NCBI GenBank assembly: GCA_951406725.2
Contig: CATOCA020000001.1
Coordinates: 7,254,001 to 7,318,000 of the forward strand
Origin: Octopus vulgaris
Lineage: Eukaryota
DNA: 64,000 nucleotides
Direction of reading: 5' to 3'
Position numbers and translations under genes: made by a program. A model generated the notes under the pieces. It saw nothing but the letters and a program-made list of their open reading frames with translations. It was not told where the DNA came from and did not search any database. Below are positions 2,845 through 55,577 of this stretch, piece by piece (positions within the stretch are counted from its first letter, which is position 1; every line of letters begins with the position of its first letter).

Positions 2845-3030
2845 GTGTGTGTCCCTAACTGCTAATTGATAATCGGTGTCGGTGTATTAGCATCCCTGTT
2901 ACTTTGGCCTGAAGCAAAAGAGATCTATAGGTTGGTGCTAATTAGACAGAAAAGGTACCACACATAAAAGACAAAATCGAGGAGGAGCCCCAGCATGGCC
3001 GCAGTCTCATAAGTGAAACAAGTAGAAGAG
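2845..3030 (+). mobile_element. 3' portion of the major octopus-type SINE
   Basis: ccccagcatggccgcagtc...gaaacaagta matches the 3' end of the copies at 15004 and 59309. Confidence 0.7.
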
Positions 3031-9000: not shown

Positions 9001-9556
9001 AGAAAGAGGAAAGAAAACGAGAAAGAGAGTGAGAGACAAAGAGAGAACAGAGAGAGTAAAAGAGACACGGAGAGAGGAGAAAGAAAGAGAGAGAAGGAAA
9101 GGAGAAAGTGAGAAAAGAAAGAGAAGGATAGAAATGAAAGAGGGAGATAGAGAGAGAAAGAAGGAGAGAAAACGAGAAAGAGAGTGAGAGACAAAGACAG
9201 AAAAGAGAGAGAGAGAGTAAATGAGACACGGAGAGAGGAGAAAGAAAGAGAAAGTGAGAAAAGAAAGAGAAGGATAGAAATGAAAGAGGGAGATAGAGAG
9301 AGAAAGAATGAGAGAAAGAGGAAAGAAAACGAGAAAGAGAGTGAGAGACAAAGAGAGAAAAGAGAGAGAGAGTAAAAGAGACAGGGAGAGAGAAGAAAGA
9401 GAGAGAGAAAAAGGGGAAAGAGAGAGAAAGTGAGAAAAGAAAGAGAAGGATAGAAATGAAAGAGGGAGATAGAGAGAGAATGAAGTAGAGAAAGAGGAAA
9501 GAAAACGAGAAAGAGAGTGAGAGACAAAGCGAGAAAAGAGAGAGAGAGAGAGAGAA
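3025..9556. repeat. Purine-rich (GA) compound satellite, ~6.5 kb, with ~120-bp degenerate units and a 220-bp unit at ~7600-8450
   Basis: + strand is overwhelmingly G/A; ttgagagagaaagacagaaaagaaaatgtg recurs at 7641, 7861, 8081, 8301. Confidence 0.95.
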
Positions 9557-9601: not shown

Positions 9602-9762
9602 ATTAATAAACCTATTGATGGATTGGGACGAACTCCTTTAATGATTGCCTGTGAAGTGGGCGCCGATAGAAGAATCATCGACATTTTGATAAAAGCTGGT
9701 CCGGAGTTAGGAGCGAAAGACAGATGGGGTGGTTGTACAGCTTTGCATTATGCTGTGTCGAG
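9602..9762 (+). CDS. ANK-RING-DD gene exon 2, ankyrin repeats (INKPIDGLGRTPLMIAC...GCTALHYAVS)
   Basis: ttacag acceptor, AG|gtaagt donor, phase 0-2; ankyrin motifs GRTPL and GCTALH. Confidence 0.92.
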
Positions 9763-9848: not shown

Positions 9849-9935
9849 ATGTTGAGGAGGAGGAGGAGGAGGAGGATAATAATGATGATGAGGAGGAGGA
9901 GGAGGATGATGATGATGACGATGATGATGAGGATG

Positions 9936-9981
<46 letters not shown>

Positions 9982-10016
9982 GGATGAGGATGATGATGAG
10001 GATTATGGTGATGATG

Positions 10017-10059
<43 letters not shown>

Positions 10060-10085
10060 GGAGGAGGAGGAAGAGGAGGAGGATG

Positions 10086-10175
<90 letters not shown>

Positions 10176-10286
10176 ATGATGATGAGGATGATGATGATGA
10201 TGATGATGATGATGTTGATGATGATAATGCTGCTGCTGCTGCTGATGATGATCATGAGGAATAGGAGGAGGAAGAGGAGGAGGATG

Positions 10287-10320
<34 letters not shown>

Positions 10321-10808
10321 GAATGATGATGATGAGAATGATGATGAGGATGATGATGATGAGGATGATGATGATGATGATGATGATTATGATGATGATA
10401 ATGATGATGGTGATGATGATGATGTTGATTATGTTAATGAGGATGGTGATGATGATGATGATGATGATGATGATGAGGATGATGATGATAATGATGATGG
10501 TGATGATGATGATGATGAGAATGATGATGAGGATGATGATGATGAGGATGATGATGATGGTGATGATGATGATGATGATGAGGATGATGATGATGATGAT
10601 GAGAATGATGATGAGGATGATGATTATGATGATGATTATGATGATGATGATGATTATGATGATGAGGAGGAGGAGGAGGGGGAGGATTATGATGATGATG
10701 ATGATGAGGATGATGAGGAGGAGGAGGAGGAGGAGGAGGAGGAGGAGGAGGATGAGGATGAGGATGAGGATGATGATGATGATGAGGATGATGATGATGA
10801 GGAGGAGG

Positions 10809-10840
<32 letters not shown>

Positions 10841-11207
10841 AATGATGATGATGATGAGGAGGAGGATGAGGATGATGAGGATGATGTTGGTGATGATGAT
10901 GATGATGATGTTGAGGATGATGATGATGAGGATGAGGATGATGATGAGGAGGAGGAGGAGGAGGAGGAGGATAATAATGATGGGGAGGAGGAGGAGGAAG
11001 ATGATGATGACGATGATGATGATGATGATGAGGATGAGGATGATGAGGATGATGGTGATGATGATGGTGATGATGATGAAGAGGATGAGGATGATGATGA
11101 TGATGATGAGGAGGAGGAAGAGGATGACAGTGATGATGATGATGATGAGGAGGAGGAGGAGGATTATGATGTTGATGATGATGAGGATGATAATAATGAT
11201 GATGATG

Positions 11208-11241
<34 letters not shown>

Positions 11242-11895
11242 GGATGATGATGATGATGATGATGATGAGGAGGAGGAGGAGGAGGATGATGATGATGAGG
11301 ATGATGATGATGATGATGAGGATGATGAGGATGATGATGATGATGATGATGATATTGATGAGGTTGATGATGATGATGATGATGATGAGGATGATGATGA
11401 TGATGATTATGATGATGAGGATGATGATGATGATAACGATATTATGATGATATTATGATGATAATGATGATGTTGAAGCCGAGGATGATGATGATGAATA
11501 CGATGAGGTTGATGATGGTTATGATGTCTATGATGATGCCGATGGTGATGGTTATGATGATAGTTGCGATGAATGTTGATGAAGATGATGATGATAATGT
11601 TGATTATGTTAATGTTGGAGATTATGATGGTGATGGTGGTGATGAATGATGATGATGATGGTGATAATGGCAATGATGGTGATGATGATGATGGAGATGA
11701 TGATGAGGATGATGATGTAGGCTATGATGATAATGATGGCGATGATGATGATGGTGATCATGGCGATGATGGTGATGATGGTGATGATGTTAATGATGTA
11801 GGTGGTGGCAATGATGACGATGGCTATGATGTTGATGATGATGATTGCGATGACAATTGTGCAGGTGATAATGATGGTGATGATGATGATGATGT
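9849..11895. repeat. Imperfect (GAT)n/(GAG)n trinucleotide array in intron 2
   Basis: Directly visible. Confidence 0.97.
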
Positions 11896-11964: not shown

Positions 11965-12118
11965 GAATCACCTTCAAGCTGTGGAGCTATTACTCTCTCG
12001 GGGCAGCAATGTCAACGAGAAGACCATCCACGGCAATACTCCTCTCCATTTGGCTGCAAGGTCATCTCCGGAATGGACAGATGGTGTGAAAGCTATAATG
12101 AAAGAGGAAGCTGTTGAG
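11965..12118 (+). CDS. ANK-RING-DD gene exon 3 (NHLQAVELLLSRGSNVNEKTIHGNTPLHLAA...AVE)
   Basis: ctctcag acceptor, gttagt donor, phase 2-0; canonical ankyrin consensus. Confidence 0.92.
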
Positions 12119-32048: not shown

Positions 32049-32226
32049 TTCTGCAAGGATCTGAAACTGGGAAACGAAGAAAGGTGCTCTGGTGTGGTAG
32101 TTGCCTGCTACCTAGCCCACCACGGGGCCAACTTTTACTGTAAAAACAAAATTGGCAGAACACCATTGGACCTAATAGAAAAGGAAAATTTAAAAAAGAC
32201 GTTAAATATGTTATTCCACCAACGCA
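32049..32226 (+). CDS. ANK-RING-DD gene exon 7, last Mind-bomb-like ankyrin repeat (VACYLAHHGANFYCKNKIGRTPLDL); apparent 1-nt deletion near 3' end
   Basis: ttgtag acceptor, gtaagt donor at 32227. Resembles the final Mind bomb ankyrin (IACFLA..GADL..RN.KG.SPLDL). Ends in phase 1 whereas exon 8 needs phase 2. Confidence 0.88.
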
Positions 32227-32742
32227 GTAAGTATTCACTGGCAATGACAAGATAAACCATTACATTTTCTATTTTGTATATAACCGTGTTTATATGTTTA
32301 TATTGTTTTAATTCGACTGATACATTATACTGTCTTAGTGGCTTAATGAAAGGTTACGCAACAACAGTAAGAAGAACAATAAACAATATGCAGTTGTTAA
32401 GCTAATTAAAGAAAGAACACTATTTTGATTACATTCAAATGATTGGTTGCGTTGACTGTTATACCTCTCCTAAAATCCCCACCCACCCACCTCTCTCAGT
32501 TCCCTATTTAAAAGATTTGGGACCAATGAGAAAATGTAGAAGTAAATAGTGAAGTGATGGAATTTATCTGTCTACCAACAGATTTTCCCTCTGTCTTCTC
32601 TGTCCCACCCAGTCATGTCCATGTGAGCTATCCTGAGAAAATCGCCTACAAACACATACAATGAGTGTACATACATGGATACATACATACATACATACGT
32701 ATTTATACATGCATACATAGATACATACATTATATATATAAT

Positions 32743-34357
<1,615 letters not shown>

Positions 34358-34387
34358 TATATATATATATATATATATACATATACG

Positions 34388-34726
<339 letters not shown>

Positions 34727-34827
34727 AGTGAATTATATTTCTGGAATATATGTTGTTCACTTTGCGTAAATCAGTTTTTGTGATGTATCAATGTCATGAC
34801 ATATACTTATTAATATTTGTGTCCATT

Positions 34828-34874
<47 letters not shown>

Positions 34875-35061
34875 CTCTGTCTGTGTCTGTGTGTCTGTGT
34901 CTGTGTGTCTGTGTCTGCATTTATATACACACAAATTCGCCCATATGTAATTGTTTAATTGTGGTGTCGCATAATATTCTCTACTGTAAATATGCACACA
35001 ATGTAATATTTGTTATAAATGAATGTTATTAATGGGATGTGTTCATGTTTTTGTTCCTCAG

Positions 35062-35204
35062 ATGTGTGTTTTGTGAAGACGAAGTGGCCACAGAGACGTT
35101 CTTTCCATGTAAACATCTTTCGCTGTGTAAGAAATGCTGTCCCCCAAAGATACCTAAACGATGCCTCAAGTGTGGACAGAATATAACGAGCAAAAATAGT
35201 TTGG
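35062..35204 (+). CDS. ANK-RING-DD gene exon 8, RING-HC (C3HC4) finger CVFC-x11-CKH-x3-CKKC-x8-CLKC
   Basis: ttcctcag acceptor, G|gtaaga donor; full set of Zn ligands with MIB/IAP-type spacing. Confidence 0.9.
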
Positions 35205-36012
35205 GTAAGAATACTGTATGATCTGTCTGTTTGTCTCATGGGCTTTATGGTGTGGAATATTGTATTTCTGTTGTTGTGTAGATCCAGTTCTGCTTAATCA
35301 AGCACACTTTTGATAAAAGATGTTCCAGGTGTCTTTTCTCTGTCATATTATGTCTCTCACTACTCCCACTAAACATTGTTCTTGTCCAATTAGAAGACTT
35401 GTCACACTTCAAGATGGTTACTTTCTGCAACATAAAAATAATAAAGAATACTGAATTATAAATGGTGACTAAATGCCAATAAATCACCAAGGTTCTATCA
35501 GTAAATACCGACATCTTGTGTGTGATTAGAGTGATTAATGATTTATCAATATCTTCGGAAGCTGATAATTAAAAACAACTGCATTTATATGAATATCAAA
35601 GTGAGCTTTTATAAAATAAGACTCAATAAGAAAATCTCAACTGAGGGTTTAGGGGCCAACATTAGAGAGGGGACATCAAAAGGGTGGGGAAACTTTGATT
35701 GATGTATAGATTAGTATTCCCGAGTATCAGTTCTTCTGAACCGTTTCAAATATTTTCACAGCAATAATGTGTGGACGACAAGTTTTATGTCGTTAATGAG
35801 GTTTTGTGTGAATGTAGTGTGTTAATTTAGGACACGAGATATCACTTCCTGTTAGACCTGATGTCACTTTCTGTTCGACCTGCTTTATTCAGGAGGATGA
35901 ATGACATTGAAATATCTTCAGATATTTCCCCACATCTGATTACATTCTGGAGAACTGTGATGTGGGTAATTAAAATTAAAGATTACTAGTAGTAACCAAT
36001 AACAAAGAGAAC

Positions 36013-36064
<52 letters not shown>

Positions 36065-36526
36065 TGAAGTGGTGTTTCGTGTTTGGGGTTGGATATTTGA
36101 TGCGCAACTTGGTTGACATTTGAATTTAGCAGAAGATGAGACGAATATTGATTAGAGATCTCTGGAGGTGAAATGACGATGTCTTGTCAAAGATCTGGAA
36201 CAAACATAAGAAAACCAAAACGAAACTAAGAGAGAATCTGTTGTTATTAGGTGATAATTAAATTAGATAATTTCAGAATTGTTAGAATTGCTGGATGCCT
36301 TAAGAGACAGAGAAGGGTTGTTAAGTGTAGTTTATGCTGTTGTGGACCTAAATTTTGAATAATTACATTGTAATACTGTAGAAATTATACAAATGCTCTC
36401 CAAAAGCATGATGGTCACCAGTTGACCAATGATGATAGGATTGTCTAACAATAATAAAACATCGATTATTAATAATGATAAAGACTTTTTTCTACAGTGT
36501 TTAAAACATGAAATTGTTTATTTCAG

Positions 36527-36577
36527 AGGGTCCAAAGTCGTCAAAGCCGGAAGTCCAGATGTTGGCAGAACCACCTG
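36527..36577 (+). CDS. Linker exon L1, 51 nt, phase 1-1 (EGPKSSKPEVQMLAEPP)
   Basis: tatttcag acceptor, G|gtgagt donor, open in the RING frame. Confidence 0.8.
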
Positions 36578-36682
36578 GTGAGTAGAAAATAACTGTACCT
36601 AATTATGTAAGACCATAAGAAGCATAGGGTTGGTTTCCCGGTTCCCCCGAGGTATATATTCTTCCATGAACAGGACGCTAGT

Positions 36683-37055
36683 CATCATCATTCATCATCA
36701 TCATTATTTAGCGTCCGCTTTCCATGCTAGCATGGGTTGGACTGTGCAACTGGGGTCTGGGAAGCCAGAAGGCTGCACCAGGCCCAGTCTGATCTGGCAA
36801 AGTTTCTACGGTTGGATGCCCTTCCTAACGCCAACCACTCCGTGAATGTAGTGAGTGCTTTTTACGTGCCACCGACACAGGTGCCAGACGAGGCTGGCAA
36901 ACGGCCACGATCAGATGGTGCTTTTTACGTGCCATCGGCACAGAGGCCAGACGGGCGGTGCTGGCAACGGCCACGTTCGGATGGTTCTTTTACGTACCAC
37001 CGGCACTGGTATCACAGCTACAATTTCCATTGATGTTGATCGATTTTGATTTTGA
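36683..37055 (-). mobile_element. RTE-associated SINE/LINE 3' end with (CAT)n tail
   Basis: catcatcattatttagcgtccgctttccatgctagcatgggttgga...ggatgcccttcctaacgccaacc; related sequence in the opposite orientation at ~85-230. Confidence 0.6.
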
Positions 37056-37059
37056 TTTA

Positions 37060-38330
37060 GTCCGCTGTAAAATTACATATTTTCGCCAGCTGAGTGGACT
37101 GAAGTGTTGGACATATTTTAATCATGTGATTTTGACTCAGAGGATTTAGTAACGAGGATTTATGTGGACTGGGCCTTCCTGATGTGCCTAACTTCCCCAG
37201 TGAATGATTTCCTTCAAACCGCTAAAAATGTGTTTGATACTCTGCATCAACCCCATTTCATAGCAAAGGCTCAAACTAGTCTCCTTTTTCATCAGAAAGA
37301 TGATCTGACATCAAATCAAGCAACAGTATTGTCAGACTTGGCAGAAAATTATAGTTTTGTAGAAAGGATTCGGAGCAAGGGTTTCATTGGAACAACTCCC
37401 AGGCCAATATATTCATCCATTCGCGATCTACTATAAGACTGGTTCAAACCCTCAATGCACTTCAATCTGTGTCATATCTGATTGTTTGAAACATGACAAT
37501 ACCACAGTGCATGCTTTTATTACGAGGGTGATATCGCATATAAAGACAGAACTTCCATTCATAAACCATCTCCTGTACTTCAGTGACGGTGCAGCCGACC
37601 AATACAAGAACTAGAGACACCAAACAAATCTCTGTCATCATCAGAATGATCAAGGACTTGAAGCGGAGTCGTTTTTCTTTGCCATGTCATGTGGAAAAAG
37701 TACATATGAGGGAATCAGTAGGATGGTGAAATGTGTTGCTGAAAAAGCAAGTCTACAAGCAACCAAGAAAGACATTTTCTCACAGGTTGCAAGATGTATG
37801 GCTGAGCATGTGCAAGCATTCCAGAGATAATGTTCTTTGACATGTCGGCAGCCGATGTCATCCAAAATGAAAACAGCTTCGACTTGCTTTCACGAATCAG
37901 CAGCTCAGTGAAATTAGTTGGCACACGATCCCATCACCGCTTCGTCCCTTCTTCAAGATCTGATCTTCTAACGAAGAAGATATCAGCTGATGACAATTTC
38001 ACTCTTTTAGGTGAGGAGAGACCAGCATCTGAGCAAGATATTTCAAAGTTAAAGTCCTGAAAATATGTTGGATACACGAATGAAAATGATTGATACATTG
38101 GTCGTATCATTGAACTCTCAGATGAAAACCAAGATTTATTAATTTCATGCACCAATCAACGCATGACTTCGGTCATGGCGTTCCTCGATCTGTACCAATG
38201 CTTGTCGGGTGCCCTAACAGAACATTATCTGATTGGTTTGAGAACCTGGGACAGAGAACCAGGTTTTATAAGCTGGCGCCTGAGGATCTGCTCTCATCCA
38301 GAAGAGGTTGTCATCGTTTATATCTAGTTA
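37060..38330 (+). mobile_element. Decayed DNA-transposon transposase, Sola2-like
   Basis: Fragments DLAENYSFV, CVISDCLKHD, YFSDGAADQYKN, FFFAMSCGKSTYEG resemble DFAENY / SDGA..QYKN / HGK..CDG transposase motifs; multiple stops and frameshifts. Superfamily assignment tentative. Confidence 0.6.
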
Positions 38331-38579
38331 TTTTTACAATCAAAAATACAAAAACGTATAATAATGATCTAATTAGATAATTGTCTGTTAATATGTAATC
38401 AATGAATTGTAAATCAATAACATCTCAAATTGTAATTAGGAGTTTTACTTTAATACCATAAGCATTTCAGTATGAAAATAATATGATTTAAAATATAAAT
38501 TTTTATATGTAAAATAAGATCCTTTTTAGCAAATAGGCGGCTTATATCTGCCCTTTTATTGATCTTCTGTGATCATTTT

Positions 38580-38960
38580 CAGGGGAGGAAATGAGGCGAG
38601 TATATCGACCCCAGTACACAACTGGTACTTATTTTATTTACCCTGAAAAAATGAAAGGCAAAGACAACCTCGGTGGAATTTTAAACTCAGAACGTGAAGA
38701 CGGACGAAACGCCACTCGGCATTTTGTTCGTCGCGCCACCGATTCTGATAGTTCGCCGCTTTAATATTATTAAATAATAGATAAGGTGACCCCTGGCAGA
38801 ATCGTTAATGCACTTAACTGCATTTCGTCCGTCTTTAGGTTCTAATTTCAAATTCTGCCGAGATTGACTTCGCCTTTTCACCCCTTCAGGGTCAAAAGGA
38901 AAATACCAGTTGTGTACTGGGGTCGATGTAATCAATGTACTCCCTCCCCGAACTTGCTGG
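38580..38960. mobile_element. Two copies of a second SINE family in inverted orientation
   Basis: atcgaccccagtacacaactggtac (38603) is the reverse complement of taccagttgtgtactggggtcgat (38904). Other copies at ~59870-60050 and ~63310-63492. Confidence 0.8.
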
Positions 38961-40567
38961 TCCTGTCACTTTTTTTAACCTTGTGTGATAAAAGTTGTCA
39001 GAGAACTGTGCAATTTTGTTAAAAAGCACATATTGGAAAATAAAATTAATTATGAAGAAGTTAAGAGCAAACTTTGAGATTTTGAACGAATAAAGTGTAG
39101 ATTATACAATCTTGGAGAATGAGTTTCGATCCATTGTTGAATAGGACACATGGTGAAGTGGCGAGTTGAAAATTGTCAAAAACACGATTTTTACACCCGG
39201 AACGAATATCAGAGGCCTCTAAATATCATATTGTATATTGTGAATCTTCTTTTCATTGGTAGATCATTTCTCAAATTGTAGAACCTCAACAGAACTTAGC
39301 ATCTTCGAGTAACATTCTACACCTTATTACTCTCTGTAATTTTACAATTTTCCTTGGTTACATGACCACATCCATACGAACCGTGATTATGGTTCCTATG
39401 TTTCAGTATGTTTTGATGTTATTGTGTTTTCGATTCATTTCATAGGAAACACTATGTTGTGGAACATTTCTGTATACGTATTTGACACTAATTAGATGTA
39501 TTTTATAAAACATTTTAGAAACGTTTTCAATTAGTTAACATCAATGATCATTAGTGACAAATGTGGTAAAATAGTGATGGTGGAATGGGGTATGAGCAGG
39601 GTTTCATATTCCTTGTAATGTTGTTACCTACGACATCAGGAAGACGGTTTCTGTCAGGTAAATATTTCTACAGAGATGTCCATTTCGTCCCCTCAGATTT
39701 GATTGAACTGAGTTTTCAGCCCATTCAGAGGCACCGCATTCATTAAGGGGACATCAAAGGAGAGGTGAAAGTTTGGTTGATATATAGAAGCGGGTTGTCA
39801 GAGATATCCTAGAGTTTTCAGAATCACTTCCATTCTACCATTTCAGATCTTTGCACTGCTATAATGTAAGGACGAAGAGTTACCTGTAGTAGAGTGAAGT
39901 TTGTGCAAGTGTATCCTCTTTGAGGACACCTGCTATCATTTTCTGTTCCACCTGTGTAGAAGTAATCTTCGCTCATCTTTATAAACACTGCTCTATTAAG
40001 GTGTTTTAAAGCATTTCATGCATCAGCTGACATTCTGGTGAACAGTGATGCAGGAAGTTGAAAACTAATCATTACCTGCTGTAATGTTTAAGAAGGAGAT
40101 CAGGTTTGAGTGTTTATACAACTTAAAGTGGTGTGCGTAATGTGTTTATGGTTAGATCATGGATAACCAAACTGGTTGCCATCGGAATTAAGCAAAGATG
40201 AGAATAATGTTGGTTAGAGAAGGGCAGAAGTGAGGGCACAATTTCACGTCGTATGTTTAGTGCAGATATGAGAAAGGAAAGACAGACCTAATAAAAGATT
40301 GGTGTTATCAAGTGATAATTAAATGAAATAATGACACAGTTGTTAGATGACGTCGAATGTCTCAAAAGATAAAGGAAATTTAGGAAGGCAGTGTAAATAT
40401 TAAACTATTACATGGTAATCCTGTTCAAACTATAAACATTCTAACCAAAACCTTTGTCTTCAACAGTTGATTATCTATGAAAGGAATCCCTGATATAAAA
40501 TATAGATTATTAATAAAGATAGAGAAATGTTTCTAAAATGTTTAAAACTTGGAAATATTCATTTCAG

Positions 40568-40618
40568 TGAATCGAACATTTGAAGACAAGGAAATGAAGA
40601 CACTGGCTGAACCTGTTG
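40568..40618 (+). CDS. Linker exon L2, 51 nt, phase 1-1 (VNRTFEDKEMKTLAEPV)
   Basis: catttcag acceptor, G|gtgagt donor; duplicated at 48943. Confidence 0.82.
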
Positions 40619-40920
40619 GTGAGTATAAAATAACAGCACTTGATTGATTCCTGTAAGGTTTATCTTCTGCTTATTTTGATATCAGAATGATAAAGATCAG
40701 CTTCCATTCTTACCTGTCAATGGGAAGTTTTAGCATTAAACTAATCATATTAAACATATCGATACTATTGACATTTCATAAAGTATCCAATCAGGTTAGC
40801 ACGGTTGGTGAAATGGATAAATTAGAAGCTAAATAGATTTCAGGTTCTCTTTTGGAACAGCCAAATAATATATGTTGTGGTTTAACAGGTGAAGTAATGA
40901 CAAAGGTTTTGTTTGTTTTA

Positions 40921-41302
40921 TACTCTTTTACTCGGTTCAGTCATTTGACTGTCACCATGCTGGAGCACCACCTTTTTAGTCGACCAAATTGACCCTAGGA
41001 CTTATTCTTTGTATGCCTAGTACTTATTCCATCTGTCTCTTTAGCCAAACTGCTATGGTACGGGGACGGAAACACACCAGCACCGGTTGTCAAGCAATGT
41101 TGGGAGGACAAACACATACACACATACATACATATATACATACATACATATATACATACATACATACAACATGCATACGACGGGCTTTGGTTGGCTCGAG
41201 GCTATAGTAGAAGACACTTGCCCAAGGTGCCACACAGTGGGACTGAACCCAGAACCATCTAATTCGTAAGCAAGATACTTACCACACAGCCACTCCTACG
41301 CC
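40921..41302 (-). mobile_element. Major SINE inserted only in duplicate copy 1
   Basis: Reverse complement of the 15004 family; empty site visible at ~49300. Confidence 0.9.
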
Positions 41303-41599
41303 TGTATTTTTAAAATGTTTACTGACAAGATATTCTTGTTATTTTACCTGATGTCTCTCATAATCTGGCAGACTTGCAATGAAACGGGTTCCAAATATGA
41401 CCACCCTCATATTTTTCACTGATAATAAATCTATCATTGCATCCAGTAAACATTGTCTTTATTCAAGTGGAAGACGTTGGTTTGCTGCTCAGAAAACCGT
41501 TGTCTCTTTCCTTTCTTCAAACTTCATAGAGGCTGTATGATACAATACAATCAAATACATTCAAAGAGACATCGGACGGGTTGAAAGAAGAAAGGATAG

Positions 41600-42260
41600 T
41601 TATATGACTGAAAATATCCAGAAGACTAGAATCCGGAGAATGTCTGTGTGTGTAGAACATGTATTTTAAATCTGGGATACCATATAAAAAGCAAAGAAGA
41701 ATAAAAGGGATTCGGATGTAGTATGGCTTGATCTGGCTAATGCTTATTGTTCTGTACTACACACATTGTTGATGGAAACAAGGAATTTCTTTCATAAATG
41801 GGAGGAGATTAAGGATCTGATGAGGAGATGCTATAACAGTTTCAAAATGTGTTTCATAGGATAAAACTTCACAAAAGACTGCCAGGTTCTGGATCTGGAA
41901 TAACTGTAGGTTGCACAATATCAGTTGGTTGGTGATCTTTATAGTTATGCTAATTAGATTAACAGAATGTCCAGAAGAAATTGCTCAACGGAAAGATATT
42001 CATGGCTGACATAACAATACTAACAAGAGACTAAAAGGATATGCAAATAGTTCTGGTTAGTAGACTCGATAGAGTAAGTACTTAGTCAAGAATGTGGTTT
42101 CAAGCAAATAAGTAATGCAGTCTATAATTTGTGAATGGTCAGCTGGAGCAAGGGAAGTTACGAACGGCAGGAGAACTCATGCCAAAAGTTAAAGACAAAC
42201 CAAAAGTTAAATATGGTGGTACGCTATCTTGTTGACTGATACATGCTGGGGTAGTGAGAC
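41600..42260 (+). mobile_element. Decayed HERO-like RT fragment (paralogous piece at ~49600-50570)
   Basis: DVVWLDLANAYCSV at ~41716 and NVLWLKLVNAFG at ~50230 resemble the WLDLANAYGSVPH RT motif. Confidence 0.65.
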
Positions 42261-43132
42261 CATGGCAAAGCTGAAGATGGACAGAAAACAACTGATAATT
42301 CAAAACTACTAAAAAAATGCAAAATTTCATGTTTCCAGTTCGATTTATATATTCTTCAGAATAAATTGTTAGTTCTCAATTTGGATATAACCCCTTTGTA
42401 ATAATGTGTACATGAACAGTTATTTTGTAGTTAAGGATGTTTTGTACAAAAGTAGTGTTTCAGGATACCTGTTATCGCTTACCTCTCCACCGTTGTAGAA
42501 CTAATCATTGCTCACCTGAAAAAAGTCGCTTATTAAGAAATGATGACATTGAAATATTTTCAAATATTTCCTTAATCAGATTATATTCTGATGAAGTGTG
42601 ATGTGGTCAGTTAAAATTAAAGATTGCCAACAGTGACCTTTAAAAAAGAGAGCGGGGTTATGTTTATCCTACCTGAAACGATGTGTCATGGTTTTGTGGT
42701 CCGATTTTTGAGGACCAATTTGGTTGTCATGGTATTAAGTAGAAAACGAGAAGAATGTTGATTAGTGAAGTCTAGAGATGAGAGGACAATCATGTCATAG
42801 ATTAGATTAAATATAAGAAGGAGATTAGCAGTGTTAACAAGTGATTATTAAATGAGATAAGTGCAATAGTGTTAGATTATGTAGGATGTCTTAATAGTGC
42901 GAGGAGATTTAGGAAGGTCAGTCTATTTAGTAGTAGACCTATATATTGGGTTATTACACGGTCCTACATTTGGCGCATTTAATAGGATCACAGTAAAAAG
43001 TATAGAAATGTTGGTGGAAAAAATAGTGCTCACCAGTTGATTATGGACGATAAGAATATCTCACAACAATAAAATATAGATTATGAATGATAACGAAACT
43101 TTAATGCCTGAAACTTGAACATATTTTTTCAG

Positions 43133-43198
43133 AGGCTCCAACGCATGGGAAATTCTCGAAGGTGTCAGAGCCTACATCCTCTACAACAAAGCCAGTTG
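43133..43198 (+). CDS. Linker exon L3, 66 nt, phase 1-1 (EAPTHGKFSKVSEPTSSTTKPV)
   Basis: ttttttcag acceptor, G|gtgagt donor; flanks homologous to those of L1 and L2. Confidence 0.78.
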
Positions 43199-44126
43199 GT
43201 GAGTATAATATTACAGCTTCATATTAAAGCTTCTGGGCCGAGGATTGCTTCAAATGGATAATACTTTGAGGGCTGTAAAAGTGTAAACGTGTAAAGCTAA
43301 GTGAATAAAATAATATTGCAAAATTCCAGTTTTTCGCAGGTACCTCCTCGAATACTTTTCAAATGTTTTCATATGATAATGTGTGAGAGATATCATGCTA
43401 TTTCGCCCCCTGTGCAGAATCTAACCATTACCCACCTGAACAAATGCCCTTATTATGGAGAATGTATGGCGTTCAAATATTTGCAAACATTTCTTGAGTT
43501 ACATAACATTCCGGTGTACAGTGATGTGGACAGTTTGTGTTCCACCTGTGTAGAACTAATCATCTCTCTCCTTTAAAAAAGCTGCTTTAAGAAGGAGTCT
43601 TCAAATATTTCCTGAATCAGATGGTGAACCGTGATGTTAGTTAAAGATTACCAGCAGCAACGTTAGCAGATGCATGTCTATTCTACTTGGTGTGAGGTGC
43701 CATGTGTTTGTGGCTGCATGTTTGACGGCAAACTGGGTTAATATTGGAATTAAGCAAATGAGAAGAGAGTTGGTTAGTGAAGTCTAGACGCCAGAGGCCA
43801 ATGCCATGTCATAGATTTCGCACAGATGTAATGGAAGAAATACAAAACTAAAAAAATACTGTGATAATTAAATGAGATAATAGTAACATTATTACACTAT
43901 TTAAGAAACCGTAATAGAGATAGGAAATTTAGAAAGGTTAGTGTATTTTGATGTGGGCCTTAGTATTGAGCTATTATATGAGGCCTCCGTGGAAAGTATA
44001 ATGCTGACCGAAACCATAGCGGTCACCAGTTGACCAATTATGATAGGAATTTCTCACAATAATAAATATAGATTATTAATAAAGAAAATTAACTTTAAGT
44101 ATCTAATTTCGGAATATTTATTTCAG

Positions 44127-44198
44127 AGTCTCCAGTGTTAGATGAAAAGTTTCTCCAAGATGTCGCACAAAATTTAGGAGGAAAATGGCAACAAGTCG
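44127..44198 (+). CDS. Death domain 1, first exon (ESPVLDEKFLQDVAQNLGGKWQQV)
   Basis: tatttcag / G|gtgagt, 72 nt, phase 1-1; DD pattern L..VA..LG..W..LG..LG continues in the next exon. Confidence 0.88.
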
Positions 44199-46981
44199 GT
44201 GAGTATAAAATAAGAGTACCTAATTGATTTATATAAGTTTCAGACTGAAAAAAAGATCTCATTCCTTCTATCCTATTGAAAGGTTAGCTTTAAAGTGATT
44301 CTTTAAAGTGACTCAGAAAATATCCACCGATGTCAGCAGTTTTGATAATAATAGATAGAGGACATATTTGAGAGTACAGGACGGCATCATTAAATGGTCC
44401 TTTCTCACAGCTTTCTGTGTATATTGGGAGACATGTAGCCTCTCCACTGTCCAGTGTCCATCTAGTAGTGTACCAGGCATCACCCACATATAGTGGCTTA
44501 TTCTATGTAGGTGAATAACGTAGAGGTTGGTGAGTCCTGCCTTCTTTCCTACTAACTAAATCTCTTCTCATTTCTAGCTTTATCATAACACCGATCCATT
44601 ATTGATTTCTCTCTAAATCATGGCATTGACACCGTGAAAGAAATGCGTATCATTCTTTTTTTGTTTGCTTTAACTTTTGAAATTTTATTATCAAGGGGAA
44701 ACTATTGATATATTGCTTCATACTGAACCTGATCTTATTCACTTGTTCCAGAAAAATTTCTTAAAATGTTAGCAGATTAAATTTTGATAATTTTTACCCA
44801 ATGAGAAAACAGGATTTGGAAGCAAGCATTTTGAGCGGGATCACAAAACAGCGACAACAGATGACGACATTACGACGACAAAAAATTCAACGACGGAAGT
44901 TTTAATAAGTTTTAATCAATTAACTTATGTGAAATATCATAACAGGCATGAGAAAAATTAGAAAAACGAGAAAAAAACAATATAAACTAAATGGGAATGT
45001 TGAATTACGAAAAAATAACGAAAGTTTGCGACGCAGTTTAGGAGTTTGTAACAGAAAATTCTGATTTAAGCATCCCATTTGAACCTATATATATTTTTTT
45101 TATTTTTTTGAGTTTTGAGAAAATGTTTGCAAATGTGAGTCCTACTCACGGGAATTCCTATGATTAAGCAAACTTATTTCAAAACATTTATTAATCCCTT
45201 ACCTTCATACATCCTAAAATTTATACTCTTTTTCAATTTTTTTGTTTTTCAAATCAGAGTTTGAAATACAGAGTTTGTCCGAATTATTTGCCTAAATCCC
45301 AGCAACGGACCACCCTTCACTGCATGATCATTCCATTTAATGAGTTTATGGGAGGAAAAATATTGAAAAACATCAATACATGTCATAGTAGCAAGGAAAC
45401 GAGGAAGATGTCAGGTGGTCAGGAGATGTGCTAAAAACAACAGCTAAATCGCCATTAACAGACAAGATGGTGAAGATGCCGACGACCGCTTTGTTCAAAG
45501 TCTCCCTTGACCTCAAGTGGCCTGAACTCTTTACATGAACACCACCCTGTACTTAACTACATGTCCCCCTACATGGCCTTGCTTTTTGCTTTTGAGCCAA
45601 AAAATTAACTTAACTTAACTCACACAGATTTTTACTTCATAATTTTATAATTCCCATGTATAGAACACAAATTTGCAATCAGTTTCTGAAAATCCCCCAA
45701 AATACAGTAAGTTATTTGGGATTATGTGGGGATAATAAAACCAGAATTCCTGCCAATTTCCGTAATCCCTGTGCCAAATAAACTCGCAGAGACACGAGTC
45801 AACCTTAGAAGGGGAAGTTTCAGAGTGACAATAACAGACGTGTAAAAGCAAGAATAAAAGGTAACAGACGAGTAAGGAGGCTACACAACACCTTCGCTTG
45901 ATACCATGGAAACGGGTGCCAATGCATTTGTGGATTTCGAGTGACTAAAGTACAATACAAAATTTGTAGATTTAAAAGCTGTTAAGTTTTTATTTATTAA
46001 ATTATGGGGAAAGTGAATTTCATTTCCATAATTAGCATACAACTCTACATCAATACATGAAATTTGAAATCAATCGGAAAAAAATTGAAGGAATTGAAAA
46101 GTGAAAGCCAAACAGATGGACAAAATATAATACGTTGAGGTCATTTTTGTATCTTGTCTTTTCGTATTTTAATTAGTTCAGATGTACCTAGTTTTTTCTG
46201 AGAGTTCAATCCAGAAAATCAATCAAGATATTTCTAAATCGTGATATGCTTTAGTCATGATCATAGGATGTTATCAAACAGTAAGAATGAGATTCCATTT
46301 ATGGGTCTTTAGAGTAACATTACTCAATAGAATGTATAGTTCAGAAATATGGGAGTCTCTTCATGTTCACATCTCTGGTACTACAAACATATGATCGGAA
46401 TGTCGCAAGAACAAATTAAAGGAGAGATTCCTAAAACAAAACCAATGGAGTAGAAGACCTAGTGGTAGACCAAAAACGAAATAGTTGGATCATATTCATA
46501 GTCTTAGTTGTTTGCGCTTAGGAAACCAACCAAAACGTCTTACGATGGTTGCATCTGATGGGACCCTATGGAGGAGGCCTCTACCCCCAAACCCTCCCAG
46601 GAATATTGACCAGTGGAATGGACAGATGGATCAAATGGTTTGACTGTTGGTCGTCTATGTTGATTTTCTAGGTTCTCATATACTTTTGCCCCCACAAACA
46701 CTTCTCCTGCCATCTCTTTACCATATTCTCAAATGTAATTTACAATTAATTCTCTTTAAAATCTTCACAATTTTCATCCTGTACTTCAACCTCTTTGTTA
46801 TTATTTAATCAGCGTTCTTAGAAATAGAGAACGATGTCTTATATATTTTATTTTTCTTAACTACTTCTCATTCCTCTATGGACATAATGCCTTTGTTGTA
46901 TTGATAACAAACTACAGTAAAGATCTTTTATAATATTGTTAATGTTGTTGCATTTATTTCTAACTGTTGTATGTTTTGCAG

Positions 46982-47166
46982 GGAGGGAATTAGGAATTGA
47001 ATCTGTTCAATTGGAAATCATCAGATATGACTATCCTTATAACACCGTGGAACAGAGCTTCCAGATGCTGCGGAGATGGTTTACACGTTGTGATCCAGAG
47101 AAACGAACACACAAAACACTCAGAGAAGCTCTTGAGAAAGGTGAGTGTTTCGATGCACTCGAATGA
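46982..47166 (+). CDS. Death domain 1, second exon (GRELGIESVQLEIIRYDYP...QSFQMLRRW...TLREALEKGECFDALE*); internal donor after 47140
   Basis: ttttgcag acceptor; DD motifs ELG, EQ.FQML..W, L.EAL. TGA at 47164-47166; AAAG|GTGAGT at 47140/47141. Confidence 0.88.
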
Positions 47167-47645
47167 GAATCACTTCCATTCTACCATTTCAGATCTTTTC
47201 ACTGCCCATAATGTAAGGATGAAGAGTTACCTGTAGTAGAGTGAAGTTTGTGCAAGTGTATCCTCTTTGAGGACACCTGTTATCATTTTCTGTTCCGCCT
47301 GTGTAGAAGTAATCTTCGCTCACCTTTATAAACACTGCTCTATTAAGATGTCTTAAAGCATTTCAAGCATCAGTTGACATTCTGGTGAACAGTGATGCAG
47401 GAAGTTGAAAACTAATCATTACCTGCAGCAATGTTTAAGAAGGAGATCAGGTGTGAGTGTTTATACAACTTAAAGGGGTGTGTGTAATGTGTTAATGGTT
47501 AGATCATGGATAACAAAACTGGTTGCCATTGGAATTAAGCAAAGATGAGAATAATGTTGGTAAGAGAAGGGCAGAAGTGAGGGCACAATTTCACGTCATA
47601 TGTTTAGTGCAGATATAAGAAAGGAAAGACAAACCTAATAAAAGA

Positions 47646-48675
47646 ATAATAATGAAATTATTGTATACAGTGCTCAGGTGCACCACAACTTGTCAGAGAG
47701 TGCGTATGAAGTACATGCTGTAATGGACAAATGTCTGGAAAGCTGACAATGTATGTGTCAGACACATGCTTGTGTGTGTATGGAGGGGAGAAAATCAGAT
47801 GTAGTGTTGGCTAATCTCAGAAAGCATGGAAGTTTTGAAGGATGCAGTGCTCTAGCAACTAACAACTGATTCCGGCAGTTTGTTCCATGCTTCAGCAACT
47901 CTCAGCGTGAAAAAATGTTTCCTAAATTCATAGGAACTGTGCTATTTTCTGACTTTGTAAATATGTCCACGGGTGTTAGACGGGTGGAGTTTGAAAAGGT
48001 TCTCAGAGTTATTGTTTGTAAGATGGTTAATAATTTTATGGGTGTCTGCCAAGTCAGCTGCCAGACGTCGGAGTTTCAATATATGCATGCCCAGGAAGGT
48101 AAGGCGTTCAGAATATAGCAAATGCCTGATGGAGGGTATTCTTTTGGTTGCACGTCGCTGAACGGCTTCCAGACCATTAATATCCTGGGCAAGATAGGGG
48201 TTCCAGACCGGTGATGCAAATTCCAGATGCGGTCTTACCATAGCTATATAAAGCCGCAGATAGGTAGCCGGAGAGCAGCTCACAAAGGACTTGGTGAGTG
48301 ATGCCTCAGACAATTTTAGCAATGTGTTTTGTCCAACGCAAATCACTATCGACAATAACACTCAGGTCACGTTCACACGAAGACTTTTTGAGATTAGTGT
48401 TGTGGAGGGAATAAGTGGACGCTGGATTTCTCCTCCCAAAATGCATAGTGGTACATTTGTCCACAGCCAGCTTGAGTTGCCAGTCCATGATCCATTGCTG
48501 CATTGTGTTTAATTCTGCTTGCAATAGAGATCTATAGTATACAGGATCTGACCTCTTTATTTCGAGGTACGGCTTGATGTCAACTGCATATTTCAGCACT
48601 GTGGCATTCTTTAAGTTGGCATCTATGGCATTAACATACGCAACAAATAAAAAGGGGGCCAAGAACAGATCAACA
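47646..48675 (-). mobile_element. 5'-truncated CR1-clade LINE inserted only in duplicate copy 2
   Basis: LYIAMVRPHLEFASPVWNPY...LEAVQRRATK, decayed YADD (KYAVD), TRGH; empty site aataaaagattggtgttatc at ~40290. Confidence 0.9.
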
Positions 48676-48942
48676 GGTGTTATCAAGTGATAATTAAATG
48701 AAATAATGACACAGTTGTTAGATTATGTCGAATGTCTCAAAAGATAAAGGAAATTTTGGAAGGCAGTGTAAATATTTAACTATTACATGGTAATCCTGTT
48801 CAAACTATAAACATTCTAACCAAACTTATTGTCTTCAACAGTTGATCATCTATGAAAAGCAGCCCTGATATAAAATATAGATTATTAATAAAGATAGAGA
48901 AATTTTTTTTAAATGTTTGAAACTTGGAAATATTCATTTCAG

Positions 48943-48993
48943 TGAATCGAACATTTGAAGACAAAGAAATCAAGACACTGGCTGAACCTGTTG
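48943..48993 (+). CDS. Linker exon L2' (VNRTFEDKEIKTLAEPV), duplicate of 40568-40618
   Basis: Two substitutions versus L2; splice sites intact, phase 1-1. Confidence 0.75.
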
Positions 48994-50887
48994 GTGAGTA
49001 TAAAATAACAGCACTTGATTGATTTCTGTAAGGTTTATCCCCTGCTGAACTATTTTGATATCAGAATGATAAAGATCAGCTTCCATTCTTACCTGTCAAT
49101 GGGAAGTTTTAGCATTAAACTAATCATATTAAACATATCGATACTATTGACATTTCATAAAGTATCCAATCAGGTTAGCACGGTTGGTGAAATGGATAAA
49201 TTAGAAGCAAAATAGATTTCAGGTTCTCTTTTGGAACAGTCAAATAATATATGTTGTGGTTTAACAGGTGAAGTAATGACAAAGGTTTTGTTTGTTTTAT
49301 ATTTTTGAAATGTTTACTGACAAGATATTCTTGTTATTTTAGCTGATGTCTCGCATAATCTGACAGACTTACAATGAAATGCGTTCCAAATATGACCACA
49401 CTCTTATTTTTCACTGATAATAAATCTATCATTGCATCCAGTAAACATTGTCTTTATTCAAGTGGAAGACGTTGGTTTGCTGCTCAGAAAACCGTTGTCT
49501 CTTTCCCTTTCTTCAAACTTCATAGAGGCTGTATGATACAATACAATCAAATACATTCAAAGAGACATCGGACGGGTTGAAAGGAGAACGGATAGTGAAC
49601 ACCTTAGATAAAAGCTCCTTAAGAACCCTTCTTACGATACTATGATTGTTTTTGCCGATGCTAAGAGGGGGATATTATAAGGCACTAAAGATGAAGAGAA
49701 CACGAATATACGGGACATATACAATGACCCCAAACGAAGTCAACCTTATCTCCTCATGTTTGGTTTGAAATGTCCAATGAAACCAGTAATCAAATATTTC
49801 AGCTTTGCGATTTCAGCAAGAAACAAGTATAAAGCTTAGTGAAGAAGGCAAGAACGGAGATTGCAACGGGAGGTGATTGTGTACCATAGAACATGTACAA
49901 ATGTTGTGCCCAGGTGTTATAAGCATTAATTACTATTTAGAGAGTTGTGGGATAAAGGTGAACTGATTAATGAATGGTGCAAGACAAAAGGATTTTATTC
50001 ATCAAAGTAAGTTAATGCAGAACTAAGTGACCAATTGGAGCCAATTTCAATCTTGAATGGCAAGATTTACAAGGCTGTACTTGCTAAGAGATCAGCTATA
50101 TATCTACAAAATAATGATTAAGTAAGATGAAATATCCAGAAGGCTGGCATCTCCAGAACCCCTGTATGTAGAACATGGATTTTCAGTCTGGGACTCGATA
50201 GAAAACACAAAGGGAAATTAAGGAATTTGAATGTGTTATGGCTTAAGCTGGTTAATGCTTTTGGCCCTCTATCAAGCAGTAAATATCTCCAATCAAGTGT
50301 TGATGGATGCAATGAACTTTAAATATGAGAGAAGAATAAGGATTTTATGAGGGGCTGCTATAACAATTTCAATATGTGTTTCATGAGAGAAAATTTCACA
50401 AAAGACTTGCATCATTTTGAAATTGGAATTGTTGTAGTTTGCAAAATATCAGTCATTTTGTTTGTGCCTCTTATGGAGATGTTCCTTTGATCAGCAGATT
50501 GATCAAGAGAGACCGGTTCGAGTGAAATAACCTAAGAAGGAAGACATCCATGGATGATATAAAAGTACCATGTAAGATATTTGGCACAGATATAAGAAAC
50601 AAAAGATAAAACTAAGGAAACAACAGTTTCTTCAATTGATAAATAAACGAGATAATTGCTACGTTACTTGATAATGAATGTAGGATTTCTTAATAGAGAG
50701 AAGTCTAGGAAGGTTAGTCTGTTTGGTTATCGACGTAAATATTGAGCTATTCCATGGGACCACGAAAGAAGTATAAAAATAATGGCCATTAATGATAAGA
50801 ATGACTTACATTTATAAAATAAAGACCAATTAACAGAGACAGAGAAATTATACTATGACGTGTAAAATTTGGAAATATTTATTTCAG

Positions 50888-50959
50888 AGTCTGTAAACCT
50901 GGATGAGAAACTTCTTCATAGTGTAGCAAAGAAGTTGGGGAATAAATGGCAGCAACTTG
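50888..50959 (+). CDS. Death domain 2, first exon (ESVNLDEKLLHSVAKKLGNKWQQL)
   Basis: tatttcag / G|gtgagt, 72 nt; paralogous to 44127-44198. Confidence 0.88.
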
Positions 50960-52173
50960 GTGAGTAAAAAAAAGCACTTGATTTCTATAAATTCTGCCAT
51001 CATTTCAACTTTTGTTTGTTAGAATGACTGAGAACAGGTTCCATTCCTAATTTTCTTTCGAATGGTTAGCTAAAGATATTACTGAAATATCACCGAGTAT
51101 GGTGAAATAGATAAATTAGAAGATACACAAGAGTTAATAGTGTCGTTTGGGACAGGTAACTAAATTCTATTATTGTTTACAAGTAAACAGGTGAGTTAAT
51201 GTCAATGTTTCTATTGGTTTACATTGCTATTTAATATACTGGTAGGTTGTTGTTGTTGTTTAGGCAGATGTATGCCTTAATCTGGCAGATTTTAGAGGAA
51301 AAGTGTCCCAGGTGTGACGCCGTTCTTTTCTTGGCAGAACAGGACCACATTATCAAATGCAACATTCTAACAGGAGACTGTATATCTCGTGTGACATGTT
51401 GTAGTAACTCTCCTGGTTAGCCTGTTTCTCTATATTTATTGTAGTCCTTTAGCCCCAGGACAACCTATAGTCCTCTCTCAAACCAGACAGGCCCTATGTT
51501 GATTATTTTCCAGGGTCGCCTGAACTCAGCCCATTAAGTTAAGGAAATGCAAAATATCAAATAATCATCCTAACAGAAGTTGTAAAGACAACTTGACTTT
51601 GTCAATTGAAATCATTTCACTCTTCTTCTTTGCTTTACAAACCTCATTTGGAAAGGCATGAACATCACAATAAACCATGTCTCCTTGTCTCAAAGTTTAA
51701 CAACAGAAAGTATCTTTTATACAATGCTCCTAGTATTTACAGTAATGTATTCTACCTCCCTATGGTACCTATATGCATGTAGGTAGAATGCACCATAGAG
51801 AAATGTCTTTACGTGGGACATTGAGCTTTGCTGGGGACTAGATTTGAACCTTCGTTCCCTGACACAAAAGGTCATGACAATCACCGCACTCAGCTGATAG
51901 AAATGATTATTAAGAAAGGACATCATGTATGACGTGGCCAACTTGTTATATCTTTTGAATTCATATAAAATGTACCAGTCATATACTGGGGTAAAATCGA
52001 TTCACTAACAGCAGTCCATTATCCTCATCTTCCGTTCATTTTTCTCCCACAGTTGTGTTTCTTTGTCAGGTTTAACTTTTTTCCTTCCATTTAGATCTCC
52101 TGCCATTTCTTTACCCAAATTTTATTTTTCACACTCCCACTCCCCATATTTCTACCATCTCCTCTCTCATGTA

Positions 52174-55091: not shown

Positions 55092-55297
55092 GGAGAGAAT
55101 TAGGAATTAAACAAGTTGACCTGAACATTATCAAGAGTGACTTCCCTAATGATACAGCAGAACAAAGTTTCCAGATGCTCTATAAATGGTTCCAGTGTTG
55201 TGATCCAGCGAATCGTACACTTAAAACATTAACGGAAGCTCTGGAGGAAATCGAGTGTTTCGACGCTCTTGAACATCTATCATTAGACACAAATTGA
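55092..55297 (+). CDS. Death domain 2, terminal exon (GRELGIKQVDLNIIKSDFPNDTAEQSFQMLYKW...LEEIECFDALEHLSLDTN*)
   Basis: ttttgcag acceptor, open to TGA 55295-55297; paralogous to 46982-47166. Confidence 0.9.
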
Positions 55298-55529: not shown

Positions 55530-55577
55530 AATAAAGATAAACTTTGAAATTTCATTTGTTGTTGATGTTGTTGTTGT
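55530..55577 (+). terminator. Probable polyadenylation signal with GT-rich downstream element
   Basis: AATAAA at 55530-55535, about 230 nt after the DD2 stop, then tttgttgttgatgttgttgttgt. Confidence 0.55.

Follow-up and report, generated by a model that had tools for sequence, protein, structure and literature searches.

Linker exons in octopus ankyrin-RING-death domain genes: a probable origin from the first death-domain exon and a predicted LC8-type motif

A stretch of 64,000 nucleotides (nt) of the Octopus vulgaris genome (GenBank assembly GCA_951406725.2, contig CATOCA020000001.1, positions 7,254,001 to 7,318,000 of the forward strand; hereafter the window, with its first letter as position 1) raises the question of where six short, similar exons of a single gene came from and what they might contribute to its product. 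The host gene lies on the + strand, as do all features placed below unless stated otherwise, and runs from 874 to 55297 in 16 exons. It encodes, in order, ankyrin repeats, a RING, three linkers (L1 to L3), a first death domain (DD) on the exons DDa1 (72 nt) and DDb1 (159 nt), one further linker (L2'), and a second DD on DDa2 and DDb2. DDa and DDb denote the first and second DD exon, and a unit is an exon with its upstream intron. Named matches of the gene come from Octopus vulgaris and O. sinensis (97 to 100% identity). The linkers very probably arose by duplication of the first DD exon, combined with shuffling between units.

The sequence-only reading of this DNA had recognized six phase 1-1 exons in homologous intron-plus-exon units, and this was borne out. 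The exons L1 (36527 to 36577, 51 nt), L2 (40568 to 40618, 51 nt), L3 (43133 to 43198, 66 nt), DDa1 (44127 to 44198, 72 nt), L2' (48943 to 48993, 51 nt), and DDa2 (50888 to 50959, 72 nt) each follow TTTCAG and end in G/GTGAGTA, with the same strong GTGAGT at all six donors, and their phase fits the register of the matching O. sinensis proteins. A profile scan of positions 30,000 to 57,000 recovered exactly six units with acceptor and donor. The intron motif quoted earlier, exemplified by GTGATAATTAAAT at 36251 in the upstream intron of L1 (sampled at 35668 to 36526, 64 to 68% between units), is present at all six places named. In 14 of the 15 unit pairs, the 310-nt stretch ahead of the acceptor signal outscores all 100 shuffles, the sole exception being L1-DDa2 (z 2.6), while the nine other exons of the gene gave only shuffle-level scores (16 to 26) in all 54 comparisons with unit introns. 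The unit at 48943 is a 95 to 96% copy of the one at 40568, and L2' shares 49 of 51 bases with L2. The six exons do not form one array, as had been proposed, since DDb1 (46982 to 47140) stands among them. They were missed by the public predictions for the locus (P0001 and P0006 hold none of them). We considered whether the shared intron stems from a dispersed transposon and do not favor this: the 40 matches scored, out of 338 candidates, lie, at the places checked, on contigs and in clusters that hold family exons. A genome-wide search for acceptor plus motif gave 221 matches versus 14 in controls; many of those listed were background or an unrelated repeat, and the count was not used.

Within the window, likeness between linker and DD exons is weak (p < 0.05 in only two of eight pairs, both involving the 66-nt exon), and because the other six pairs are at chance level, the homology of the two exon kinds was drawn from paralogs. 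There, six distinct 72-nt linkers compared with 31 distinct DDa exons reach best gapless identities of 0.57 to 0.65, above each of 300 shuffles (maxima 0.43 to 0.49). A common origin of linker and DD helix-1 exons, as claimed earlier, is thereby upheld, and this identity suggests that the linkers likely arose from the first DD exon. Five decayed DDa exons show gapless identities to DDa of 0.60 to 0.62. At eight loci on contig C29, a decayed 72-nt exon (DDa2-like, 0.60 to 0.62, hydrophobic core lost) directly precedes an intact DDa, and another decayed copy is apparent by eye in O. bimaculoides P0073. We infer that the direction was from DD exon to linker, because the DD is an ancient folded domain and decayed 72-nt copies sit beside intact ones. 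Weighing against this history, the tree of 66 upstream introns is star-like, with 18 of its 63 inner branches open, and settles neither a single origin nor the order of events. That symmetric exons are duplicated is well established. What appears undescribed is a derivation of linkers from a DD exon, together with their LC8-type motif (see below) and their range of 0 to 10 copies.

The gene belongs to a family of octopus ankyrin-RING-DD genes. The terminal DD exon has at least 147 genome matches (150 of 161 candidates scored), the RING exon has 51, and the splice-flank pattern of the units has 251 versus 1 in the control; family matches lie mostly on contigs C29 and C31. We annotated 52 loci including that of the window, picked as the closest DD matches and RING-DD pairs, 42 of which are complete genes (RING, DDa, and DDb). 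Comparison across these paralogs, as the earlier reading had advised, showed that linker number varies from 0 to 10: none in 6 genes, one in 7, two in 9, three in 10, four in 4, six in 3, and seven, nine, and ten in 1 gene each. These counts are lower bounds, a later profile scan having found nine missed donors. In the family sample, 120 of 124 linker exons are a multiple of three and free of stops. In a profile search with P0005, ankyrin repeats dominated the result, and 7 of the 149 other matches were family-like. The literature covered gave no description of the family, which a gene-family table in supplements or subscription papers could list; in a word search, "ankyrin" and "mind bomb" were absent from the main texts of two cephalopod genome papers.

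Several relatives depart from the layout seen in the window. At C27:23.66 Mb and at C29:21.14, 24.10, and 29.60 Mb, linkers are amplified as head-to-tail units of 154 to 166 nt with introns of about 100 to 115 nt, up to eight in a row. At C31:10.47 Mb (L125-L126) and in P0042 and P0015, linkers run into unrelated Ser-rich exons with no death domain. The interval C1:216.75-216.78 Mb (L046-L050) holds a RING-L3-DDa1-DDb1 gene, followed 25 kb on by an orphan DDb2 without a DDa. At C2:152.04-152.47 Mb (L073-L085), arrayed exons of 57 and 66 nt share the splice flanks of the units; the peptides that they encode, rich in S, T, Q, and P, are unrelated, and no family protein match was found in the stretches fetched.

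Many of the family's linkers share a short motif that the earlier reading had overlooked. It reads [DE]-K-x-[VIT]-Q-T, and its distance to the acceptor is constant. The LC8/DYNLL-binding motif, as far as the accessible part of its description goes (PMC6607443), has a polar residue at -4, often K/R at -3, a Q at 0 flanked by branched buried residues at -1 and +1, and P/D/E at +2, and it lacks an internal proline; from the same source we built a strict rule (polar -4, K/R -3, T/V/I -1, Q 0, T +1, with +2 free). Under this rule, 23 of the 77 distinct linker peptides carry a strict motif and 20 more a relaxed one, while none of 28 distinct DDa peptides has the strict form. The chance rate is 0.06% in shuffled linkers and 0.03 to 0.07% in neutrally mutated DDa exons, and 142 unrelated ankyrin proteins gave 12 matches in 372,247 residues. 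The motif also occurs in three of seven distant family proteins, three times in one of them. Over 18 linker lineages, K at -3 is conserved in 15, V at -1 in 13, Q at 0 in 15, and T at +1 in 13, whereas among 11 DDa lineages Q at 0 is found in 3 and T at +1 in 0; DD exons conserve a hydrophobic helix face instead. The four anchors are the four most conserved of twelve positions (rank 1 of 495 possible sets), with pN/pS across lineages of 0.29 versus 1.12 elsewhere and synonymous changes at each anchor. One family linker contains EDKGVQ of the gephyrin LC8 site, given as EDKGVQCE in the accessible part of PMC12057147. An intact LC8 gene is present in the same genome. In the structural model of P0002, linkers (residues 1 to 40) are low-confidence coil without secondary structure (mean pLDDT 42 to 51), as judged from one model with a shallow alignment. 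Many linkers carry a motif predicted to bind LC8, a reading that we consider moderately probable. Two to eight strict motifs occur in 6 of the 42 genes (range across genes, 0 to 8), and P0107 has three. At C31:5.59-5.62 Mb (L133-L135), eight strict-motif linkers lie in four repeats of about 5 kb. No account of LC8 motifs born by exon duplication was found in the literature covered, with subscription papers outside that coverage.

Several observations weigh against a motif under selection, and some of them favor a different explanation, which we rate as fairly unlikely: that the linkers are tolerated duplication debris acting as spacers only, their LC8-like appearance being left over from the DD exon and completed by a single chance event, or else serving some other partner. 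Strict motifs are found in only 13 of the 42 genes and in none of the window's four linkers, and 34 of the 77 distinct peptides fail even the relaxed rule, so that decay of the motif is frequent. E/D at -4 and K at -3 were inherited from the DD exon, and part of the motif therefore came free. Within lineages, which represent recent copies, anchor codons are unconstrained (N/S, 0.96 versus 1.06 elsewhere); this test is weak, because functional DDa exons also appear unconstrained (0.82 to 1.16). Further, the motif was noticed before the tests were made, and the 18 lineages are not independent. Six of 42 genes do without any linker, DD exons that decayed independently and lack the motif have been kept as well, and 9 of 52 loci have a lesion between RING and DD, as is expected for a birth-and-death family. 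What speaks against debris is that the four positions conserved across lineages are those named in the LC8 literature and differ from the conserved positions of DD exons, and that neutral origin of the motif falls below 0.1%.

RING activity depends on dimers. We propose that the first DD exon, with its intron, was duplicated repeatedly into homologous phase 1-1 units; that most copies in the family would have become disordered linkers, many with a predicted LC8 motif; and that recombination between the introns they share would be the main cause of changes in their number, in-frame skipping being a probable second layer. LC8 would then hold two chains side by side between RING and DD, and such pairing would favor RING dimers and DD assembly, scaled by the number of motifs. 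This account as a whole, comprising duplication of the first DD exon, LC8-type linkers, a number set by recombination, and skipping, seems to us moderately probable. Its furthest extension, in which DD helix 1 became an LC8-binding module and copy number serves as a valency dial for dimerization and ubiquitin-ligase output in more than 100 octopus infection or stress sensors, is tentative and on balance doubtful. The idea that occupancy grades activity has its basis in the client biology of ASCIZ and LC8, so far as the accessible parts of PMC5963919 and PMC6607443 describe it. If true, the birth of a short linear motif from the duplicate of a domain exon could be traced within a single genome that still has the ancestor, the intermediates, and the decayed copies, and scaffolds with 0 to 8 motifs would provide a natural series for LC8 valency.

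The variable spacing between RING and DD that had been suggested earlier is borne out as a difference in linker number, and its source, overlooked at that stage, lies largely in DNA differences between paralogs, which duplication and module exchange within shared units largely appear to generate. The best-matching paralog switches along the locus at about 42970 to 43090 and again at 47165. In five paralogs, the intron that precedes a different linker exon matches the intron before L3 at 91 to 95% identity over 1.5 to 2.5 kb; this near-identity ends at about 42966, some 165 nt before the acceptor, after which the two are loosely alike and in register. Pairwise alignment with one paralog and the mosaic map place the likely crossover zone at 42960 to 43132, within a unit intron. 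The stretch from 43090 to 47165 matches one C1 paralog at 93 to 95%, and 47166 to 55500 matches another paralog type at 95 to 99%. At other loci the RINGs that precede the DDa2-DDb2 block are of different types, and in two of these the join falls at 50845, immediately ahead of the acceptor. We infer that unequal exchange within shared units caused this mosaic. A roughly 1-kb insertion in the intron before L2' (47646 to 48675) is held in common with a paralog at C31:2.08 Mb (98 to 99%).

At 47165/47166, DDb1-type sequence ends and sequence like the intron before L2 (from 39820 on) starts. No other of the 40 scored matches spans both sides of this joint, and by alignment the two DDs of the window's copy appear to come from a fusion of two paralog types that is unique in the genome. 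In O. sinensis, the 5' half makes up a whole gene by itself, with DDb1 as its last exon (P0023), while a separate gene is of the L1-L2-DDa2-DDb2 type (P0002). DDb1 (phase 1-1) is the terminal exon in relatives; here the donor AAG/GTGAGT would end it, making it internal and removing the last helix. This donor, 25 nt before the joint and in phase with the next exon, is found in 1 of 42 parsed DDb exons; with the donor unused, the frame stops after 8 more codons.

Could splicing rather than DNA change select among the linkers? In the predicted RefSeq isoforms of ten O. sinensis multi-isoform loci, whole linker exons differ at seven, with up to three nested skips, and one isoform at a single locus drops the first DD exon. 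(Of the seven loci, four were grouped partly by neighboring accessions and three by locus name.) The longest isoforms hold all linkers in series, up to four plus the DD exon, so that linker use is not mutually exclusive, and on these grounds a Dscam-type choice of one exon per mRNA was rejected. Two of the five skip junction types correspond to genomic neighbors in paralogs and could therefore be explained by mis-mapped reads, which counts against splicing as a second layer; the other three have no genomic mimic among the 52 loci. In-frame linker skipping as a second layer is accordingly probable from the predicted isoforms, and to that extent the combinatorial splicing proposed by the sequence-only reading survives. 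The swapping of DD N-termini that it also envisaged is not supported: family genes have one DDa per DDb, no isoform exchanges DD starts, and the two DDs of the window result from a unique fusion. A fully regulated system, in which cells choose exon subsets including alternative DD starts as in Dscam, would gain from the symmetry of every unit (phase 1-1, multiple of three), from the skipping of one to three linkers at 7 of the 10 loci and of the first DD exon at 1, and from the three junction types without a mimic. It is very unlikely given the linkers in series, the DD starts that are never exchanged, the same differences hard-wired among paralogs, and the equal strength of the six donors.

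The state of the window's own copy bears on all of this. Exon 7 (32049 to 32226) measures 178 nt and goes off frame near its 3' end, whereas in 15 of the 18 loci parsed it is 176 or 179 nt long; the window's is one of three off frame, and 2 of the 20 loci were not parsed. With one base short, the frame stops at 35184 to 35186, within the RING exon and upstream of the whole linker series, a frameshift that the earlier reading overlooked and that leaves the units out of frame in this copy. A message with a premature stop so placed is, as a general rule, likely to be degraded. Use of a cryptic acceptor at 35079 would bring the reading back into frame, at the cost of the first two RING cysteines. 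From its sequence, then, this copy is likely a dying member of the family: its frame is lost ahead of the RING, its linkers lack the motif, and two paralog types are fused in it. Errors of assembly, in the missing base, at the 47165 joint, or in both, offer an alternative that we consider unlikely and under which the true locus would be an intact single-DD gene or two genes. Paralogs 95 to 99% alike invite chimeric joins, the joint is unique, the 5' half exists as a complete gene in O. sinensis (P0023), and the paralog L119 reads CCC where the window has CC, a typical homopolymer slip. Yet two further copies among the 18 are off frame in exon 7, similar module joins recur in the family, and only here does a near-consensus donor precede the joint in a phase that suits the following exon. 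If the copy is a dying one, the locus itself matters little, and intact paralogs are better suited to study of the biology.

All four linkers of this copy fail the motif. In L1, whose peptide is identical in P0023, a Pro at -3 and a Met at +1 disrupt the LC8-like motif; in L2, a Lys replaces the anchor Gln of paralogs; and L3, likewise identical in P0023, lacks the motif. DDa1 and DDa2 each encode helix 1 and the start of helix 2, an assignment that for DDa rests on the P0002 model. DDa1 is identical in P0023, whose Pfam Death match begins there, and its helix limits follow from homology to that model; DDa2 is identical to P0002 residues 41 to 65, with a model helix at 47 to 67. The terminal coding exon DDb2 (55092 to 55297; poly(A)-type hexamer at 55530) matches Pfam Death with an E value of 1.6e-8 (35 bits versus a cutoff of 22.6), and DDb1 alone, at 21.8 bits, falls just below the cutoff.

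Mind bomb (MIB1/MIB2) proteins carry MIB/HERC2 and ZZ domains at the N-terminus and two or three RINGs at the C-terminus, and they have no death domain. Databases apply that name to this large, fast-changing octopus family with an immune- or cell-death-like layout, and the label is mistaken: Pfam finds only Ank, RING, and Death in P0005 and P0023, and the window's gene starts with ankyrin sequence rather than a MIB-type N-terminus. The likeness lies in ankyrin repeats followed by a C3HC4-type RING; the family differs in its one RING followed by linkers and a death domain, in the absence of MIB/HERC2 and ZZ by Pfam, and in its more than 100 copies. Its death domain resembles those of ankyrin, RIPK1, RAIDD, and PIDD in sequence (E values of 2e-8 to 6e-4) and in fold (root mean square deviation of 1.3 to 2.0 Å to the top matches), with the difference that here it is split over two exons, the first of which was repeatedly duplicated and reused. 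Dscam clusters, with mutually exclusive exons, and the micro-exon genes of schistosomes provide comparisons for tandem homologous exons with shared flanks and for symmetric short exons that can be dropped in frame; in the octopus family, inclusion is in series, variation is largely fixed in paralog DNA, and the products are intracellular. Multivalent LC8/DYNLL clients, as described in the accessible parts of their reports (ASCIZ, PMC5963919; gephyrin, PMC12057147; the KANK1 linker, PMC12803091), likewise carry tandem polar-K/R-x-V/I/T-Q-T-D/E motifs in a predicted disordered linker beside folded domains. The octopus family, a candidate client, differs in that every motif occupies an exon to itself, one with homology to a DD exon, and that paralogs have 0 to 8 strict motifs. 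Mollusc IAP families with RING and death-domain forms, in the accessible part of PMC8917759, share the tandem expansion of RING-bearing genes with new domain orders; they carry BIR rather than ankyrin repeats and are another family.

Exons 1 to 7 (874-951, 9602-9762, 11965-12118, 15974-16128, 19885-19921, 24025-24234, and 32049-32226) encode the ankyrin repeats on the evidence of open reading, of Pfam Ank in the two exons tested, and of P0006, which matches exons 1 to 5. The RING (C3HC4) exon (35062 to 35204, entered in phase 2 and left in phase 1) matches Pfam zf-C3HC4_3 above the cutoff (E value, 5.5e-7). An extra stretch of 16 residues that some O. sinensis isoforms have between exon 7 and the RING found no match in the window, including the intron at 32227 to 35061. 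That intron also contains an element (32731 to 34485) with inverted ends of about 330 nt at 82% identity, which by eye resembles a degraded Tc1/mariner transposon. A 908-codon open frame that runs antisense to the gene (27375 to 30101, - strand) lies in intron 6 and has YRDD and VYIG motifs; it gave no Pfam match at an E value of 0.001, and it resembles a Penelope-type retroelement. Very long purine-rich and (GAT)n tracts occupy parts of introns 1, 2, and 4 (3015 to 9550, 9860 to 11890, and 16770 to 19425).

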